NCBI GenBank assembly: GCA_039630085.1
Contig: JBCNVM010000002.1
Span: 64,001 to 128,000, forward strand
DNA: 64,000 nt
DNA from: Candidatus Caldarchaeales archaeon
Lineage (GTDB): Archaea; Thermoproteota; Nitrososphaeria_A; Caldarchaeales; Calditenuaceae
Reading direction: 5' to 3'
This document shows positions 11,916-23,095 of the stretch, in pieces (positions within the stretch are counted from its first letter, which is position 1; every line of letters begins with the position of its first letter). The notes below the pieces were generated by a model. That model did no database searches and was not told the DNA's origin. It worked only from the letters and a program-made list of their open reading frames with translations. Position numbers and translations under genes: made by a program.

Positions 11916-13496
11916 TCACGCCGGCTCTGCGGTCACTATGACGAACTTCTCGTTCGGCAGGTAGGACACTCCCTTGATCTTCGCGGAGTAGACCAGCGGG
12001 AAGTTCTGGGTCCAGAGGAAGATGAACGGCGCGTCGTCCCAGACGATCCTGGCTATCTCGCAGAGCACCTTCGCCCTCTCGTTGGGGTCGGTGATCCTCA
12101 GCTGCTGATCGAAGAGCTCGTCGACCCTCGGGTTCTTGTAGTACGAAGTCGCCAGCCCGGCCGGTGGCCAGTAGCCGGACCAGTAGACGAGGAACATCTG
12201 GTACGCGTCGAGGTAGGCGGGCGCCCATCCGAGCAGGTGCAGGTGGTGAGAGACCTGGTCGGGAGGCCTGTTAATGGTCGCGACGTACGTCGGCCAGTCC
12301 ATCGTCCGCATCTCGACGTCGAACCCGACCTCCCTCAGGTACCCCGCCACCGCTTGAGCCGCGACCGCGTCGTTGATGTACCTGCCCGTCGGATAGAGGA
12401 AGAGGACCTTCGTGCCGGGCCTGACTCCGGCCTGTCTCAGCAGCTCGCGCGCCTTCGCGGGGTCATAGGGATACTGTCCGACGGGGCAGTACCCGAAGAG
12501 GCTCTTGTGCATCGGCGCGTCGACCGGATCGACGATCCCAAACATCACGTTCTTGATGATGGATTCCTTATCGACGGCGTAGTTGAGCGCCTGACGGACT
12601 CGCTTGTCGTTGAAGGGCTCGACCCTGTTGTTGATGGAGATGAAGATTAGCCTGTCGCTCGGCGCAAGGAGCACCTTCACGTTGGGGTTGGCCTTCAGCC
12701 TCTCGATCTCTGCAACCGGCGGGAGCATTATCATGTCGACCTCGCCGGCCAGAATCAGGGACAGCCGAGTCGCCGCGTCTGGCACTATCTTAAAGACGAT
12801 CTGGTCGTAATACGGCCGCTTGCCCCAGTATTCTTGGGCTCTCGTTAGAACGAGCCTGTCTCCCCTGACGTACTCGCTGATCACGTACGGGCCCGTGCCG
12901 ATCGGCCTGGTGATCAAGGTGTAGTTGTTGCCCGGGGTCTCGACCGTCTTAGGCGAGATGATGGCCGACGTCGTCCACGTAAGTGCATGGATAAGGGGCG
13001 CGAACGGGTACTTCAGGACGAGCCTCACGGTGAGGTCGTCAACCACCTCGACGCGCTCAATGGGGGTATACGGCGCCCTGATCGGGACCCTCACCTTCGG
13101 GTCGAGGACCCTCTCGAGGGAGAACTTCACGGCCTGAGCAGTCAGGGGGCTGCCGTCGTGGAACTTGACGCCGGACCTCAGCTTGATGATCACCACTTTG
13201 CCTTCCTCCTCGTACCTGTACTCGGTAGCGAGGTTCGGGAGCAACTCTCCCTTCTCGTTGATCCTGAAAAGCGTCTCCACGACGTGGTCGAGCATGTTAG
13301 CGACGGTCGTCGTCGTCTGACTCGCCGGGTCGAACGTGTCGATGTCCACGCTCACCGCCATCCGGAAGACCTTCGGGGCCGGCGGCTGCGAGGGCTGAAG
13401 GAGGAAGAACCCTGCAACCAGCGCGACCACCAGCACGGCGGCCGCCAGTATAACGAGGGACCTGCTGAGACCTCTCGCGTCTCTCATCATTTTCAT
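11916..13496 (-). CDS. Peptide ABC transporter substrate-binding protein (family 5)
   Basis: N-terminal TM anchor, KFHDGSPLTA, IGTGPY, VRQALNYAVD; start moved downstream of the ORF-track start. Confidence 0.93.
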   Translation of the reverse strand: MKMMRDARGLSRSLVILAAAVLVVALVAGFFLLQPSQPPAPKVFRMAVSVDIDTFDPASQTTTTVANMLDHVVETLFRINEKGELLPNLATEYRYEEEGKVVIIKLRSGVKFHDGSPLTAQAVKFSLERVLDPKVRVPIRAPYTPIERVEVVDDLTVRLVLKYPFAPLIHALTWTTSAIISPKTVETPGNNYTLITRPIGTGPYVISEYVRGDRLVLTRAQEYWGKRPYYDQIVFKIVPDAATRLSLILAGEVDMIMLPPVAEIERLKANPNVKVLLAPSDRLIFISINNRVEPFNDKRVRQALNYAVDKESIIKNVMFGIVDPVDAPMHKSLFGYCPVGQYPYDPAKARELLRQAGVRPGTKVLFLYPTGRYINDAVAAQAVAGYLREVGFDVEMRTMDWPTYVATINRPPDQVSHHLHLLGWAPAYLDAYQMFLVYWSGYWPPAGLATSYYKNPRVDELFDQQLRITDPNERAKVLCEIARIVWDDAPFIFLWTQNFPLVYSAKIKGVSYLPNEKFVIVTAEPA

Positions 13497-17580: not shown

Positions 17581-17629
17581 CGGATACGCGGGCTAAAGGA
17601 CAATTATAGGGTGTAACCGACCGTGTGGT

Positions 17630-19054
17630 GTGAGGCGAGGGATAGGGTTAGCTCTGGTCGGGATGCTGGCGGTCGCGCTGGCGCTGAGCCTCAACCCCGC
17701 CGAGGCCTCGAACTTCATCAGCTCGGTCCACGACGACAGGCTCACCGTCACGCTCACCTATCCCGCGGAGGTGAAGAGGGGGACCTGCTTCCAGGTCAGG
17801 GTCGAGGCCTTCGCCCACGAGCCGCTCTCCAAACTGAACCTGACCGTGAGGCTCGAGCTGCGTTCCGGAGCGACCGTGATCGGCCTCCTGTCGGCGCCGG
17901 TCGTGACGCTCTGGTCGGGCTCTCCGGGTCCGGTGGTCAACACCCACGTGGGAGCCTGCGTGGCGACATCGCACCCGACCGGCGTCATAGTCTCGAAGGT
18001 CGAATTCGAGTACCTCCACTCCGGGAGCGAGTTCAACCTAACGAACCTCTTCCAGATGGCCTTCGTGAGGGACCGGACCTACGAGGAGCTGGCTGCTCTC
18101 CTGGGCTCCGCGACCTCGGAGGTGGATAGCCTCCGCAACGCCCTGAACGAGGCGATGAGGACGATAGGTTCGCTGACGGAGGAGGTGAGGAGGCTCAGGT
18201 CGGAGCTCGAGAGGAGCAGGGCAGAGGTGGCCGCGCTCCAGAGGGAGAAGTCGGAGCTGGAGAACAGGCTCAACGCCCTGAACGCCCTCTACGAGGGGCT
18301 CAGGAGGGAGTACGAGTCGCTCAGGATGAACCACGAGAGGCTCCTGAGGGATCACGCGGCGCTCCAAAACGCGGAGGCTTCTCTGAGGAGGTCCTACGAG
18401 GAGCTGGTGAAGGCCCACCGCGACCTCCAAGGGGACTTCGCAACCCTTCAGGAGGCCTACGCGAAGCTTCGGGAGGAGCACTCGACCCTGAGGGCGCTCC
18501 ACGAGGACCTGAGGACCAGGCACGAGAGGCTTGGTGCGGCCTACGAGGAGTCGGTGAGGACCGCGGGCTCCTTGAGGGGAGCCCTCGAGGAGAAGGCGAG
18601 GCAGGTCGACGTCCTAACGGCGATGCTCGAGGGGGCCCTCAGGGAGAGGGCGATCTTCAGCAACATCGTGATCGGACAGGCGCTTGGGCTCGGAGGACTG
18701 GGGGCCCTCTATTTGCTCGAGCGGAGGAGGGTCAAGAGGGGCGCGTCGGGACAGGCCTCTGCGACCGGCAACGGTGCTGCGACCCCCTTACCACCCGAGA
18801 ACGGGAACGGCAACGGCGACAGCGAGTCCTTGATCCAGAGGGTGATATCGGGGAGGAGGATCACGATACCGAAGCCAATAGCCGAGAGGCTGGGGATCAA
18901 GGTAGGCGACCTCGTCGAGCTCTCGCTCGCTAACGGCCACGTGTCCGTCAGGCCGATCTCCCAGGCCCCGCAGCTCAAGCAGCAGCCGGAGGCTGCAGAC
19001 CAGCAGCAACGGCAGTCCTCAGGCCATCAGCCCGAGGGCGCTAAGGGCAAGTAG
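17630..19054 (+). CDS. Single-pass membrane protein: signal peptide, beta-rich head, long coiled coil, TM helix, cytoplasmic AbrB/MazE-type DNA-binding domain
   Basis: Signal peptide ending AEA; long heptad repeats; TM followed by RRRVKR; QRVISGRRITIPKPIAERLGIKVGDLVEL is AbrB-like. Confidence 0.8.
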   Translation: MRRGIGLALVGMLAVALALSLNPAEASNFISSVHDDRLTVTLTYPAEVKRGTCFQVRVEAFAHEPLSKLNLTVRLELRSGATVIGLLSAPVVTLWSGSPGPVVNTHVGACVATSHPTGVIVSKVEFEYLHSGSEFNLTNLFQMAFVRDRTYEELAALLGSATSEVDSLRNALNEAMRTIGSLTEEVRRLRSELERSRAEVAALQREKSELENRLNALNALYEGLRREYESLRMNHERLLRDHAALQNAEASLRRSYEELVKAHRDLQGDFATLQEAYAKLREEHSTLRALHEDLRTRHERLGAAYEESVRTAGSLRGALEEKARQVDVLTAMLEGALRERAIFSNIVIGQALGLGGLGALYLLERRRVKRGASGQASATGNGAATPLPPENGNGNGDSESLIQRVISGRRITIPKPIAERLGIKVGDLVELSLANGHVSVRPISQAPQLKQQPEAADQQQRQSSGHQPEGAKGK

Positions 19055-20142: not shown

Positions 20143-21477
20143 TCAGGCGGTCGGCCTCGTGAACCGGACCTCCCTGACCAGCAGGTAGGGAGCCCTTACC
20201 GGCGTCTCGACCTCCCACCACCTTATCGGGAACTTCTCCGATGAGACCTCCTCGATGTTCCTAAGGAGCCTGAGGAAGTTGTCCGAGAGCCTGAGGCCCT
20301 TCACCGCGTGCTCGATCGTCCCTCCCCTGACCAAGAAGAGCCCGTCCCTGGTGATCGTCGAGAAGTCGCCCCTGCTGATGTCCTGGTAGCGGAGGTACCA
20401 GTCGTTGGTCACGAGGATCCCCCTGTCGAGCTTCGAGAGCAGCCTGCTGAAGGGCGATGTCCCTCCCTCAACGACGAGGTTGAACGGCTGTGGCACGATC
20501 AGCCCCGCGTTCGCGGTCGATGAGGTCTCGAACTTCCTCGCGGTCGCGCTGTTGTGGAGGTAGCTCCTGAGGACGCCGCCGTCGATGATGACCGTCCTCC
20601 TGGTGGGGAGCCCCTCCTCGTCGAAGGGCTCGGCGCCGTAGGCGCCGGCGACCGTCGGGTCGTCGACCAGGGTGAGCGCCCTCGAAGAGACCTCCTTCCC
20701 GAGGAGCCCGGCGAGGAACGACATCCCGCTGTCGACGTAGAAGGCGGATGCGGCAGAACCGACCTCCTCGAGGAGGTTCGCGGCGGTCATCGGCCCTATC
20801 ACCGCGTCGTAGGCGCCCTCGGGAACCTCCCTCGGGTCCTTCGCGGCCTTCGCGACCTCTCCCGCCTCCCTACCCACCTGCTCGGGGTCGAACTCGGAGA
20901 GGTTCCCTGTTCCGGCCGCGAACTGGCCGCTCGACTCCCCGTCCAGGAACGCCCTGACCGAGAGCTCTATCGTGTCCTTTTGGGCCTCCGCCTCGACGCC
21001 ACCCGTCGTGACGAGGCTCCTGTGCGTCCTCGTGAGGACGAGTGAGCCCGCGACCCTGCTCGCACCGGCGCTCAGCGCCGCGTTCACCGCCGCCTCAACA
21101 GCGTCGACAAGCTTCTCCCTCCCGATCCCCTTCAGCCTCATGTCGAGCAGCCTCGGGTCGTAGGAGAAGGGGCCCGAGGGCAGAGGCGCGTACAGGTCCG
21201 AGGGCGGCGTGCTCTTCGCGAGCCTCAGCGCGTCCCTGACCAGCGCCTTGAGGCCGGAGGCGGTCACGTCGGTGGTTCCGGTCACGGCCCTCTGGGGCCC
21301 GAAGGCGACGTAGAGCGAGACGCTCTCCTCTTCGAACCTCTTCGAGACCGTTACCTCGTTGTTCGCGAACCTGATCATGTAGGTCGTCGTGGTGAAGGAC
21401 TCCACCGCGCAGTCGGTCGCGCCCTCGGCCTTGACGGCCTTGGTCAGGGCCTTCGCCCTCCTCGAGCTCAGGACCAA
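20143..21477 (-). CDS. TldD/PmbA family protein (TldE-like; no HExxGH seen)
   Basis: IRFANNE, LTLVDDP, PFDEEGLPT, SYLHN, GDFS. Confidence 0.88.
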   Translation of the reverse strand: MVLSSRRAKALTKAVKAEGATDCAVESFTTTTYMIRFANNEVTVSKRFEEESVSLYVAFGPQRAVTGTTDVTASGLKALVRDALRLAKSTPPSDLYAPLPSGPFSYDPRLLDMRLKGIGREKLVDAVEAAVNAALSAGASRVAGSLVLTRTHRSLVTTGGVEAEAQKDTIELSVRAFLDGESSGQFAAGTGNLSEFDPEQVGREAGEVAKAAKDPREVPEGAYDAVIGPMTAANLLEEVGSAASAFYVDSGMSFLAGLLGKEVSSRALTLVDDPTVAGAYGAEPFDEEGLPTRRTVIIDGGVLRSYLHNSATARKFETSSTANAGLIVPQPFNLVVEGGTSPFSRLLSKLDRGILVTNDWYLRYQDISRGDFSTITRDGLFLVRGGTIEHAVKGLRLSDNFLRLLRNIEEVSSEKFPIRWWEVETPVRAPYLLVREVRFTRPTA

Positions 21478-21568
21478 AGCCCCTCGGCGGTCCTCGCCGG
21501 CAGGAGGTAAAAAGCTGATCGGGAAAGGACAGGTTCATAGGACCGGGAGGCCGGGTACGGGCAGGAGG

Positions 21569-23095
21569 TTGCTCTTCGCGGTCAGGTATCCGGTCGCGTC
21601 GAGGAAGGGCGTCTACGGCGAGAGGATGGAGGTCGTCGAGTCGAGGGAGGGAGCGCTCAGCGCCTGCTCCGGGGAGGGCACGAGGAGGGTCGTCGTGGAC
21701 GCTGCGACGCTCTCTGCCGACGTCAGGAGGTCCGCGTACGGAGAGGTGCTCGCGGCGAGGCTCCTGACGCCGTTCACCGCCGAGGGCGACCTGAGGGCGC
21801 TCCGGTCGCTGCTCAGGGCGTACGTCAGGAGGTCGGTCGAGGACTCGCTGGTCGACATCAGGAGGGACTACGGGAGGGCCGCTGAGGAGTTGTTGATCGA
21901 CCCGAGCCACTTCGTCCTCAGGAAGGTCAGGGGGCTCGTCGCGCTCTACCCGCCGCTCTGGAGGGTATTCTGGTGGGCCTCGAGGTCCTCGCAGGACAGG
22001 GAGCTGCTGAGGAGGGTCGCGGATAACTTCAGGCCCGTGCTCGACGAGCTGGTCGATGAGGGGAGGCTGGCCGCGGACGGGTCTACGGGGCTCTACAGGC
22101 TCGCCAGGGGGACCGGACGGGAGGAGGTCGGGGCGTCGATGGGAGCAGGCCTCGTGAGGCGGCTCGAGTCGCTCCTGATCCCCGGGAGGCTCGGCGCCGG
22201 TCTCCCGAGGCTCGTCTTCGAGGAGGCCCTCGAGGGCGGATGGGAGGCGATGGTGCCGCCGGACCCGGAGGAGGCCCTCTCGATCAGGACCGAGACCGGG
22301 CTGCAGCCGCTCTCCTTCGAGGGCGACGTCGCGGAGTTCGTCAGGAGGCTCTGCGGGGGCGGCGTCGACTCGGTCAGGGTCCGGAGGGCCGGATGGCTCT
22401 TCAACTCGACCTACCTCGTCGAGGTCGAGCAGGGAGGCGACGTGAGGAGGCTCTTCGTGAAGAGGTACCTCGCGATGACCGACGTCAAGTGGGTGGCCGC
22501 GAAGCTCTGGTCCTTCCCGCTCAGGAACTTCCACCTCTCGCCGGCGGCGAGGCTCAGCAACGAGCTCTTCTTCATCTCGTACCTGAGGGAGAGGGGACTG
22601 AAGACGCCGCACGTCTTCGGCGTGAGCTGGAGGAAGAGGGTCCTCCTAGAGGGCGCGATACAGGGGAGCTCGCTGAGGGAGCTGTGGACCTCCGAAGGCG
22701 TCGAGGCCGGTCTGCTCGAGGAGGTGACGGTCAGGTCCGGGGAAGCGGTCGCGAGGGCCCACTCGCTGGGCGTGACGCTCGGCGACTGCAAGCCCGACAA
22801 CGTGATGGTCGACAGGAGGGGTCAGGTCTGGCTGGTCGACCTCGAGCAGGCGTCCCTAGGGGGAGACAGGGCATGGGACGTGGCCGAGTTCGTCCTCTTC
22901 ACCGCGAGGTATCTGGACCTGAGGAGGAGCAGGGAGTTCGCGAGGCTCTTCGGCGAGGGTTACCTGCGACACGGCAACCCCAAGGACGTCGAGAGGGCCC
23001 TCGACCCGAAGTACGTCCTAGCGATGGTCCCGGTCTCGCCGGTCTGGACGCAGGTCGCGGCGCTCGAGGGCCTCAGGAGCGCCCTCCGCGCGTGA
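21569..23095 (+). CDS. Conserved archaeal protein with C-terminal atypical kinase domain (Kdo/WaaP/Bud32-like)
   Basis: LFVKRY, NE helix, LGDCKPDN catalytic loop, VDLEQA, WDVAEF; start uncertain (TTG 21569 or ATG 21626). Confidence 0.75.
   Translation: MLFAVRYPVASRKGVYGERMEVVESREGALSACSGEGTRRVVVDAATLSADVRRSAYGEVLAARLLTPFTAEGDLRALRSLLRAYVRRSVEDSLVDIRRDYGRAAEELLIDPSHFVLRKVRGLVALYPPLWRVFWWASRSSQDRELLRRVADNFRPVLDELVDEGRLAADGSTGLYRLARGTGREEVGASMGAGLVRRLESLLIPGRLGAGLPRLVFEEALEGGWEAMVPPDPEEALSIRTETGLQPLSFEGDVAEFVRRLCGGGVDSVRVRRAGWLFNSTYLVEVEQGGDVRRLFVKRYLAMTDVKWVAAKLWSFPLRNFHLSPAARLSNELFFISYLRERGLKTPHVFGVSWRKRVLLEGAIQGSSLRELWTSEGVEAGLLEEVTVRSGEAVARAHSLGVTLGDCKPDNVMVDRRGQVWLVDLEQASLGGDRAWDVAEFVLFTARYLDLRRSREFARLFGEGYLRHGNPKDVERALDPKYVLAMVPVSPVWTQVAALEGLRSALRA

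Follow-up and report, generated by a model that had tools for sequence, protein, structure and literature searches.

Regulators of the ToxR/CadC type carry an N-terminal cytoplasmic winged-helix DNA-binding domain, a transmembrane (TM) segment and a C-terminal periplasmic sensor. Domains of the AbrB/MazE/Sso7c4 kind occur free in the cytoplasm, as proteins of about 50–100 amino acids (aa), or as the N-terminal domains of soluble regulators. On the archaeal surface, SlaB (model NF040788; PDB entry 8QOX, chain B) is a coiled-coil stalk protein that anchors the surface layer (S-layer) of the Sulfolobales to the membrane. The S-layer of Pyrobaculum is described as standing 37 nm above the membrane on a self-anchored 292-kDa lattice protein of 2,667 residues, PySLP, with 19 Ig-like domains and an Ig-domain pillar, homologues of which are reported from the Thermoproteales, Thermofilales, Caldarchaeales and Culexarchaeales (10.64898/2026.08.21.746120). 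The gene considered here lies at 17630..19054 on the forward strand of a 64,000-nucleotide (nt) stretch of the genome of a Candidatus Caldarchaeales archaeon (contig JBCNVM010000002.1), referred to as the window. Its product has a head and a long stalk predicted to lie outside the cell and, behind a TM segment, an AbrB/MazE domain. On the evidence of its sequence relatives this AbrB tail, which is restricted to a single hot-spring lineage, appears to be an add-on to an uncharacterised envelope-stalk family. We place high confidence in the architecture and the evolutionary history set out below.

The open reading frame (ORF) comprises 474 codons plus a stop and opens with GTG. It is the single copy of the stalk gene in the whole genome of the organism, and record P0002 of the protein database is the identical 474-aa sequence. 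An earlier note, written from the letters of the window, had divided the product into a cleavable signal peptide ending ..PAEA/S, a head, a stalk, a TM segment, a linker and an AbrB/MazE domain; all of these are present, as judged from the ORF, hydropathy, AlphaFold2 and curated models. Hydropathy bears out the signal peptide (residues 1–27; 17630..17710, +), which has an RR pair, a hydrophobic core with Kyte–Doolittle windows of 1.5–2.1 and the AEA/S end, and a hydrophobic N-terminus followed by a small-x-small motif was seen in 28/28 orthologous ORFs inspected. The TM segment, expected at 18650–18718 with an inner flank of RRRVKR, was located at residues 342–363 (18653..18718, +). It is rich in Gly and Ala, runs into ERRRVKR and has a mean pairwise identity of 0.427 across the class to which the organism belongs (Caldarchaeales/'Aigarchaeota'). 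Hydropathy, the positive-inside rule and an invariant Cys pair in the head together predict a type I topology with the AbrB domain inside the cell.

The basic flank and the low-complexity linker that follow occupy residues 364–400 (18719..18829, +). AlphaFold2 confidence is low here, with pLDDT below 50 over residues 335–397 (TM segment and linker) and about 30 over linker residues 364–397. In relatives the linker is 22–58 aa long, with a mean pairwise identity of 0.218. Beyond the AbrB domain (residues 401–447; 18830..18970, +) there is a variable Gln/Pro-rich C-terminal tail (residues 448–474 plus stop; 18971..19054, +), which has pLDDT below 50 in the window protein and which in relatives is a low-complexity segment of 0–33 aa with an identity of 0.251.

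The head (residues 28–150; 17711..18079, +) is modelled as an all-beta, Ig-like sandwich with a mean pLDDT of 94.1, using an alignment of 22 divergent sequences. It had been described in the earlier note as a beta-rich region of about 120 aa with two Cys residues and two NLT sequons. The Cys residues, C53 and C110, are invariant in 22/22 of the divergent sequences. The sequons (N70 and N136) do exist, but the first is kept in only 6/22 and they are not conserved beyond close relatives in the same alignment. No Pfam family matched the head, and a head profile found 0 matches at E <= 10 among PDB sequences. Foldseek against the PDB gave generic Ig-like/E-set sandwiches only (Der p 2/NPC2, CTLA-4, arrestin and GAE; TM-scores of about 0.4–0.55 and 9–17% identity), and a structure-atlas search returned Bathyarchaeota hypothetical proteins at TM-scores of 0.77–0.80 followed by arrestin- or CARDB-like folds. 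As modelled, the fold is a generic Ig-like/E-set sandwich that provides no functional lead, and the assignment of a specific function from such generic structural matches was rejected. The head family has no curated model, and the database names of its members point to no studied protein.

How widely is the complete architecture found? Searching 5.8 billion proteins, we obtained 43 relatives of 391–487 aa, 42 of them with a precomputed PF04014 assignment; in the 43rd (P0005) the AbrB motif is visible in the alignment. They derive from Nitrososphaerota/'Aigarchaeota' genomes, including Ca. Calditenuis and Ca. Geocrenenecus, and are labelled 'hypothetical' or 'AbrB/MazE/SpoVT family DNA-binding domain-containing protein', with some named after PrlF-type antitoxins. 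When 20 sequences were aligned the TM and AbrB blocks were kept in 20/20 and were the most invariant parts. Head profile A2 recognizes the window gene with E = 9.8e-48, and a head-only profile finds exactly one copy in 65/76 class genomes (17/18 in genome family f1, 32/35 in f3, 15/18 in f4 and 0/4 in f2). We inspected the loci of 32 class genomes, chosen partly for short-looking matches and hence not a random sample, and found the AbrB domain in 20 and no such domain in 12. The fused frame is free of stops in 20 independent genomes from at least eight genera. Together with the 42 database relatives, this conservation rules out a fusion artefact, and the doubt raised in the earlier note, that the joining of the two halves might reflect readthrough or faulty assembly, can be set aside.

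Part of the family is without AbrB. That homologues might end after the TM segment had also been considered in the earlier note as a sign against the fusion, and such homologues were found, alongside the 20/32 class genomes that keep the domain. In genus g7 the domain is absent from 8/8 loci, which end 20–30 residues past the TM segment in an Arg-rich, poly-Pro tail. Genus g6 lacks it in 4/5 loci; three of these end 15–50 residues past the TM segment and one (L014) stops inside it. Six-frame translations revealed no separate AbrB ORF and no decayed remnant downstream of the AbrB-less genes (best E = 0.46). Outside the class the head family was found in 24 genomes, with 401 sampled from the phylum (f14 12/23, f28 8/12, f13 1/8 and other families 3/62). 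AbrB is absent from all 14 loci retrieved from these genomes; 12 of the 14 have an intact C-terminus and consist of signal peptide, head, coiled coil, TM segment and a short, often poly-Pro tail, and in one locus the sequence breaks off past the beginning of the stalk. These outside lineages include Thermofilum, among them a hypothetical protein of T. pendens, and Pyrobaculum (72% identity to a named assembly). An exhaustive profile search of 1.84 billion representatives yielded 64 head-bearing proteins, with the head starting within the first 51 residues in 62/64 (the three largest offsets are 82, 86 and 1875). Among the 64, AbrB is confined to the top-scoring group, where it occurs in 11/14 and in one 121-residue fragment.

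The history of the tail was examined with a maximum-likelihood tree of the shared part (39 rows), for which Thermofilum- and Pyrobaculum-type sequences served as the outgroup. The AbrB-less g7 clade is sister to the AbrB-bearing g10 with support of 100, and the AbrB-less g6 members group with the AbrB-bearing member of that genus, also with support of 100. The tree needs four changes of AbrB state, three of which are forced by well-supported branches. The simplest history suggested by these sequences is that the class gained the tail once, at its base, and that the tail has since been lost two or more times. The AbrB-less orthologues keep the head, stalk and TM segment, from which it follows that the core function is at the envelope or outside the cell and does not require AbrB.

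Several irregular copies were noted along the way. P0096, the 121-aa fragment mentioned above, connects roughly the first 30 head residues straight to the AbrB block and is probably a metagenome mis-assembly or a gene-calling artefact, not a natural minimal form. The g11 orthologues G052:C46:7412-8731 and G038:C8:48573-49820 contain two and one in-frame TAG codons, respectively, which could reflect pseudogenes, sequencing errors or read-through. In G017 the gene is split (C17:11510-12646 and 12841-13152) into a 443-aa frame, covering profile positions 9–387, and a 192-aa frame of linker and AbrB; in G023 it is the frame at L014:2951-3997 that stops inside the TM segment. The split and the stop may be frameshifts or mark decaying copies.

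The stalk (residues 151–341; 18080..18652, +) had been estimated as about 190 aa of continuous heptads reaching some 28 nm, and both figures are upheld. Over residues 150–345 there are 28 heptads without a break or stutter, and Leu fills 21/28 of the 'd' positions; at 16% Leu the chance of this is P ~1e-11 per phase, and 0/20000 shuffles reached 21 (the highest reached 14). AlphaFold2 models a single helix over residues 151–339, which at 0.148 nm per residue measures 28.0 nm. Insertions and deletions among relatives are of 7 or 14 residues, so that the heptad register is preserved. The 'a' positions are less usual. Of the 15 consecutive heptads between residues 207 and 305 (18248–18544), 12 have Tyr, His or Phe there, and across 25 relatives the middle and lower stalk has mostly Tyr at 'a' and Leu at 'd'; the upper third has Ile, Val or Leu at 'a' instead of aromatic residues. 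This Tyr/His ladder may bear on the oligomeric state of the stalk. As a separate observation, aromatic cores are unusual in dimeric coiled coils, and the His residues could confer sensitivity to pH or metals.

Residues 27–474 were modelled in two copies, the dimer being the only state considered, in three runs with three controls. The median score was 0.65 (runs of 0.65, 0.71 and 0.61) and that of the best control 0.00, which places the protein above the mark of the tool. That mark was reached by 20/30 proteins solved as same-chain pairs and 1/23 solved as single chains, counts that apply only roughly here since our own alignment was used. At least 93% of the contacts agree between the runs, and the partner pLDDT is at least 79. 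The confident contacts along the stalk, from residue 151 to 340, link the same residue in both chains (189–189, 203–203 and so on), as in a parallel, in-register pair, and head-to-head contacts involve residues 29–36, 46, 119 and 135–142. They cover the head and stalk only; the TM segment and AbrB domain are not among them, which is no evidence against contact there. The pass may partly reflect a likeness to coiled coils, which are well represented among solved structures. With that reservation, our model supports the idea that the stalk is a parallel, in-register dimer. Since the chains would run parallel, the cytoplasmic tails would leave the membrane side by side and be able to form an AbrB dimer.

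The AbrB/MazE motif that the earlier note had placed at about 18835–18955 corresponds to residues 403–442, and the assignment passed the cut-offs of both curated models: PF04014 with 29.8 bits (cut-off 24.7) over residues 410–446, rising to 32.6 bits with the tail alone, and TIGR01439 with 34.9 bits (cut-off 28.3) over residues 409–443. A profile of the AbrB-tail family matched PDB sequences of MazE/PemI (3e-5), the Sso7c4-type archaeal AbrB (1.2e-4) and the AbrB N-domain (2-7e-4), and also SpoVT and Abh. Members of this superfamily have the element order beta1-beta2-alpha-beta3-beta4 within some 45 residues. In the monomer AlphaFold2 assigns strands at residues 400–404, 428–434 and 437–442 and a helix at 415–421, with pLDDT of 67–80; beta2 (ITIP) is not assigned as a strand, as expected if the fold is completed in a dimer. 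Mean pairwise identity was computed block by block in 25 diverse AbrB-bearing members. It is highest in the AbrB block (0.461) and lower in the head (0.346), the stalk (0.33) and the linker (0.218). Residues S407, G408, R409, R410, P414 and G426 are invariant in 25/25, and the domain has a net charge of +1 to +5 in 25/25.

The best guide to what these residues might do is Sso7c4, for which NMR is reported to map the binding of DNA to loops 1 and 3, strand 2 and helix 1; loop 1 contains the conserved R11 and N12, with Arg15 of AbrB as the equivalent (PMC3159460). The same work describes an interdigitated dimer with an extensive hydrophobic interface that is not fully denatured by heat near 100 C (PMC3159460). 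By gapless extension of the offset of our profile alignment, R409 and R410 fall at the R11/N12 positions of loop 1. Because an invariant Arg pair would sit in the DNA-contact loop and the domain is always net positive, binding of DNA by the AbrB tail is a sensible proposal, and from the sequence we put its chances at even. The DNA-contact face appears to be only partly kept.

Among the six PF04014 matches in the genome, the stalk protein alone has a TM segment; the other five ORFs contain no TM-like segment. Four of these (C34:4284-5273, C1:58093-59052, C23:24292-25341 and C23:88328-89767) encode soluble proteins of about 320–350 aa that begin with or soon reach AbrB and look largely helical in the remainder; the fourth frame is 480 aa long with a probable start much further in. 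These four may resemble archaeal AbrB–PhoU-type regulators. A small stand-alone AbrB ORF is present at C1:243486-243839.

Other membrane-tethered AbrB proteins were also sought. The search for shorter relatives, made with residues 338–474, gave three matches, all C-terminal fragments of the stalk family: they are 149–185 aa long, start at an internal Met of the stalk and lie on contigs whose longest copies measure 945, 3096 and 12568 bases. The search for longer relatives found none among 658 candidates, which is weak evidence, and a structure-atlas search returned small soluble AbrB/MazE clusters only. The literature was searched for a membrane-anchored AbrB protein, or an envelope stalk with a cytoplasmic AbrB domain, and no description of either was found, which agrees with the view in the earlier note that no archaeal system of this architecture had been described.

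Our best explanation, offered tentatively and with somewhat less than even confidence in the whole, is an envelope stalk with a membrane-tethered, DNA-binding AbrB dimer on a flexible leash. Once the signal peptide has been cleaved, the Ig-like head, probably with a disulfide bond, would stand some 28 nm out from the membrane. Its stalk would be a coiled coil of parallel chains in register, in which 'd' is Leu and 'a' is mostly Tyr or His, anchored by one TM helix. The basal form, as in Pyrobaculum, Thermofilum and others, would extend only a few residues into the cytoplasm, as a basic, often poly-Pro tail, and would most likely serve as a structural element or spacer in the broad gap beneath a tall S-layer, analogous to the SlaB body plan. 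Behind this basal tail the ancestor of the class would have acquired an AbrB/MazE swapped-hairpin domain. The side-by-side tails would form an obligate AbrB dimer just under the membrane, on a disordered leash of 22–58 residues, and the dimer would most likely bind DNA at the inner face of the membrane, either to attach the nucleoid to the envelope or as a membrane-held regulator.

The proposed S-layer connection draws on the overlap of lineages. The head–stalk lineages that can be named (Pyrobaculum, Thermofilum and the Caldarchaeales) fall within those listed for PySLP, a correlation that combines the list in the paper with our own searches, and a 28-nm stalk plus the head would nearly span the 37-nm gap in Pyrobaculum. 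In the available text of that preprint 'AbrB' occurs 0 times and the head–stalk family is not mentioned (10.64898/2026.08.21.746120). Taken further, the dimer may couple the surface to the chromosome in filamentous Caldarchaeales, with the head on the underside of a PySLP-type S-layer or on another pseudo-periplasmic structure, the stalk spanning about 30 nm and AbrB gripping DNA. We regard this extended version as speculative and distinctly unlikely as it stands. If it were true, the position and segregation of the nucleoid along the filament would be tied to the envelope, the protein would be an archaeal functional analogue of envelope-spanning linker complexes, and the AbrB-less relatives with poly-Pro tails would represent an ancestral linker to a different cytoplasmic partner.

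A number of observations weigh against the explanation that we favour. Some lineages have dropped the AbrB tail, on at least two occasions, and retained everything else, so its role must be dispensable there. The helix-1 Arg (R22 of Sso7c4, Arg23 of AbrB) falls on E419, which is Glu in 18/25 members by the same extrapolated alignment; beside it A418 is found in 21/25, and a basic residue one position later in only 17/25. The best PDB profile matches include Cdc48-type double-psi barrels, which do not bind DNA, and the fold alone is no proof of DNA binding. The aromatic 'a' positions (12/15, residues 207–305) could fit a higher oligomer than the dimer that was modelled. In the loci compared no neighbouring gene recurs across families and no S-layer gene is adjacent, and the 66-contig assembly of the window organism, in which a PySLP-type gene was sought, has no intact ORF of more than 1531 aa.

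One rival idea is that the AbrB-like barrel does not bind DNA at all, and is instead an inner clamp locking the stalk oligomer or a docking site for a cytoplasmic protein of the cytoskeleton or division machinery. Swapped-hairpin barrels are obligate, very stable dimers, as Sso7c4 is described to be (PMC3159460); the replaced helix-1 Arg, the non-DNA-binding fold relatives and the dispensability of the tail all suit such a role, and the poly-Pro tracts of many tails and linkers could bind proteins. What this proposal leaves over is the invariant, exposed Arg pair and the constant positive charge, which exceed the needs of a clamp. A clamp on a disordered leash of 22–58 residues would moreover add little stability to a 190-residue coiled coil, and no candidate docking partner was identified. 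We consider it a serious rival to DNA binding, although on balance an unlikely one. As for a cytoskeletal partner, an actin-family PF00022 gene is present in the window genome (C56:19269-20024, E = 1.4e-12), which fits the report that all known Aigarchaeota encode actin, the same source describing Ca. Calditenuis as filamentous and as encoding actin (PMC4681859). In its passages on that organism the stalk protein is not mentioned. PF00022 was detected at E <= 1e-10 in 75/401 genomes, a threshold that cut through the signal (g25, identified as Pyrobaculum, scored 0/15), and actin-like genes occur also in f2 (3/3) and f10 (11/17), both of which are without the head family. Alternatively, the DNA-binding domain might be released: damage to or shedding of the ectodomain would lead to intramembrane cleavage in the Gly-rich TM segment, and the freed linker–AbrB dimer would regulate envelope genes. 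The well-conserved TM segment is unusually rich in helix-destabilizing Gly and Ala, AbrB is the most conserved region with its basic loop kept, a disordered linker excludes allostery but not release, and loss of the tail in some lineages is what one would expect of a regulatory add-on to a structural protein. Packing of helices in an oligomer would explain a TM segment rich in small residues equally well, none of the lineages compared has a protease gene linked to the locus and no conserved cleavage motif was identified; the 149–185-aa database matches are gene fragments and not a released form. We think such a membrane-tethered transcription factor rather improbable. An AbrB dimer that bound DNA might serve as a nucleoid tether, as a membrane-held regulator or as a factor released by proteolysis.

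The suggestion in the earlier note of a one-component transmembrane sensor, with a signal received by the head and passed allosterically through the stalk and TM segment to DNA binding, fared less well. Its predicted topology does resemble that of regulators of the ToxR/CadC type. The linker is disordered and variable in length and cannot transmit a conformation, which makes allosteric signalling from the head to AbrB implausible. In addition, orthologues and outgroups keep the head, stalk and TM segment without an output domain, so a sensor with a DNA-binding output is not what the protein is chiefly built to be, and the head is a plain Ig-like sandwich of no recognizable ligand-binding family. 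We judge the sensor very improbable. Names are the main attraction of a type II antitoxin, as PF04014 is named after the MazE antitoxin and some relatives after those of the PrlF type. The neighbours in the window, named from their translations, are a 2-hydroxyacid dehydrogenase-like ORF and a malate dehydrogenase (Mdh) ORF, and housekeeping genes adjoin the stalk gene in every lineage compared, so that the observation in the earlier note that no toxin gene is adjacent holds throughout the loci examined. The tail after the barrel is short, variable and of low complexity, with no conserved C-terminal extension for binding a toxin, and a scan with a library of defence and toxin–antitoxin systems (PADLOC) gave coiled-coil matches only, which we treat as noise. 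The antitoxin assignment was rejected on these grounds. An artefactual fusion of a surface-protein gene with a small AbrB gene is countered by the stop-free frame in the 20 genomes, at least eight genera and 42 database relatives described above, and the probability that either explanation is correct is negligible. The tethered AbrB dimer on its flexible leash accordingly remains the explanation that we favour, at the tentative level stated.

The surroundings of the gene offer few further leads. An AT-rich, TATA-like element, AATTATA, was read from the sequence at 17603..17609 (+), about 25 nt upstream of the GTG; it stands isolated in a region of about 65% GC. Its position suggests that the gene may have its own promoter and a leaderless transcript. 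The order 2-hydroxyacid dehydrogenase, stalk gene, Mdh is found only within f1; in f3 and f4 the neighbours are ThiF/rhodanese, NAD synthase, TiaS, a Nuo/Mrp subunit, an amidase, a PUA protein and a radical SAM protein. Further along the window, ORFs at 20143-21477 (-) and 21389-23095 (+, 568 aa) share about 90 nt in a head-to-head arrangement when counted from the first start codons, and the start of one of them probably lies further in. The former reads as a TldD/PmbA-like protease from its translation. Elsewhere in the genome there are several ORFs of 600–850 aa with a C-terminal TM segment and a basic tail. Two of them, of 848 and 763 aa, are adjacent on contig C65 (20281-22824 and 22828-25116, both -), are rich in Thr, Ser, Val and Gly and end in a C-terminal TM segment and an Arg-rich tail. 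They could be candidate surface proteins of relevance to the S-layer of the organism.

The family is of interest because the link between the S-layer, or pseudo-periplasm, and the interior of the archaeal cell is largely unknown, as is the positioning of the chromosome where the segregation machinery is poorly understood. The stalk gene is a nearly universal, single-copy candidate in the Caldarchaeales, for which the AbrB-less variants provide built-in controls. A previously unnamed envelope protein family is also present in Pyrobaculum and Thermofilum, which are cultivable and whose S-layers are now being solved, so that experiments on its basal function are feasible. Should the AbrB tail prove to bind DNA, the protein would be, as far as literature searches show, the first stalk of the envelope known to carry a DNA-binding domain in the cytoplasm. 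Failing that, the family would still be a new component for models of tall archaeal envelopes.

Of the known systems, SlaB is similar in having a signal peptide, one or more beta-sandwich domains, a long coiled coil, a C-terminal TM segment and a short basic tail, and its stalk is given as 20 nm in a review or about 30 nm in a preprint (10.64898/2026.08.21.746120), compared with 28 nm here. The resemblance does not extend to the sequence. The SlaB model gives the stalk protein 25.8 bits, confined to the coiled coil and well below the cut-off of 700, and alignment of the head profile with that of SlaB ORFs taken from genomes (hhalign) gave a probability of 2.7% and one aligned column. SlaB has two or three beta-sandwich domains where the stalk protein has one small head; its coiled coil is rich in Ser, Thr and Asn, in contrast to the Leu/Tyr zipper seen here, and it has no cytoplasmic domain corresponding to AbrB. 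The review describes SlaB as a trimer, whereas the stalk protein has been modelled only as a dimer, and it describes slaB as adjoining and co-transcribed with slaA, whereas no large surface-protein gene lies beside the stalk gene in the loci compared. Membership of the SlaB family was rejected because of the score below cut-off and the unrelated head; the body plan alone is shared. At E <= 1e-10 the SlaB model matches genomes of f21 (9/10), f20 (4/5), f12 (10/25) and f5 (3/43) and none of f1 (0/11), f3 (0/18), f4 (0/11), f14 or f28. The head family has the reverse distribution, occurring in f1, f3, f4, f14 and f28, and no genome family has both, with the proviso that the genomes are a sample and that related genomes are not independent. 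This pattern suggests that SlaB and the head–stalk family are alternative solutions to the same task at the envelope.

PySLP, as described in the preprint, shares Ig-like domains, a C-terminal TM segment, a basic cytoplasmic tail, a comparable height (37 nm, compared with about 28 nm plus the head) and overlapping lineages with the head–stalk family. Members of the latter are described as 10 or more times smaller and have one head on a coiled-coil stalk, and they are unable to form a canopy themselves. Turning to the cytoplasmic side, the AbrB tail resembles the soluble AbrB N-domain, MazE and Sso7c4 in matching PF04014 and TIGR01439 and in keeping the basic DNA-contact positions of loop 1. 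It differs from them in being C-terminal, tethered to the membrane behind a TM segment and fused to an extracellular part of 340 residues; the helix-1 Arg is not kept and a toxin partner is absent. Like regulators of the ToxR/CadC type and membrane-tethered transcription factors that are released by proteolysis, the protein is predicted to have a single TM segment that separates an extracytoplasmic part from a cytoplasmic domain of DNA-binding type. The polarity is reversed, with the DNA-binding type of domain at the C-terminus of a predicted type I protein, and that domain is an AbrB barrel and not a winged helix. In place of a compact sensor there is a 28-nm structural stalk, the linker is disordered and lineages that have no domain of the DNA-binding type keep the remainder of the protein. 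The AbrB domain and the SlaB-like body plan are each of a known kind; no description of the two combined was found in the literature searched.

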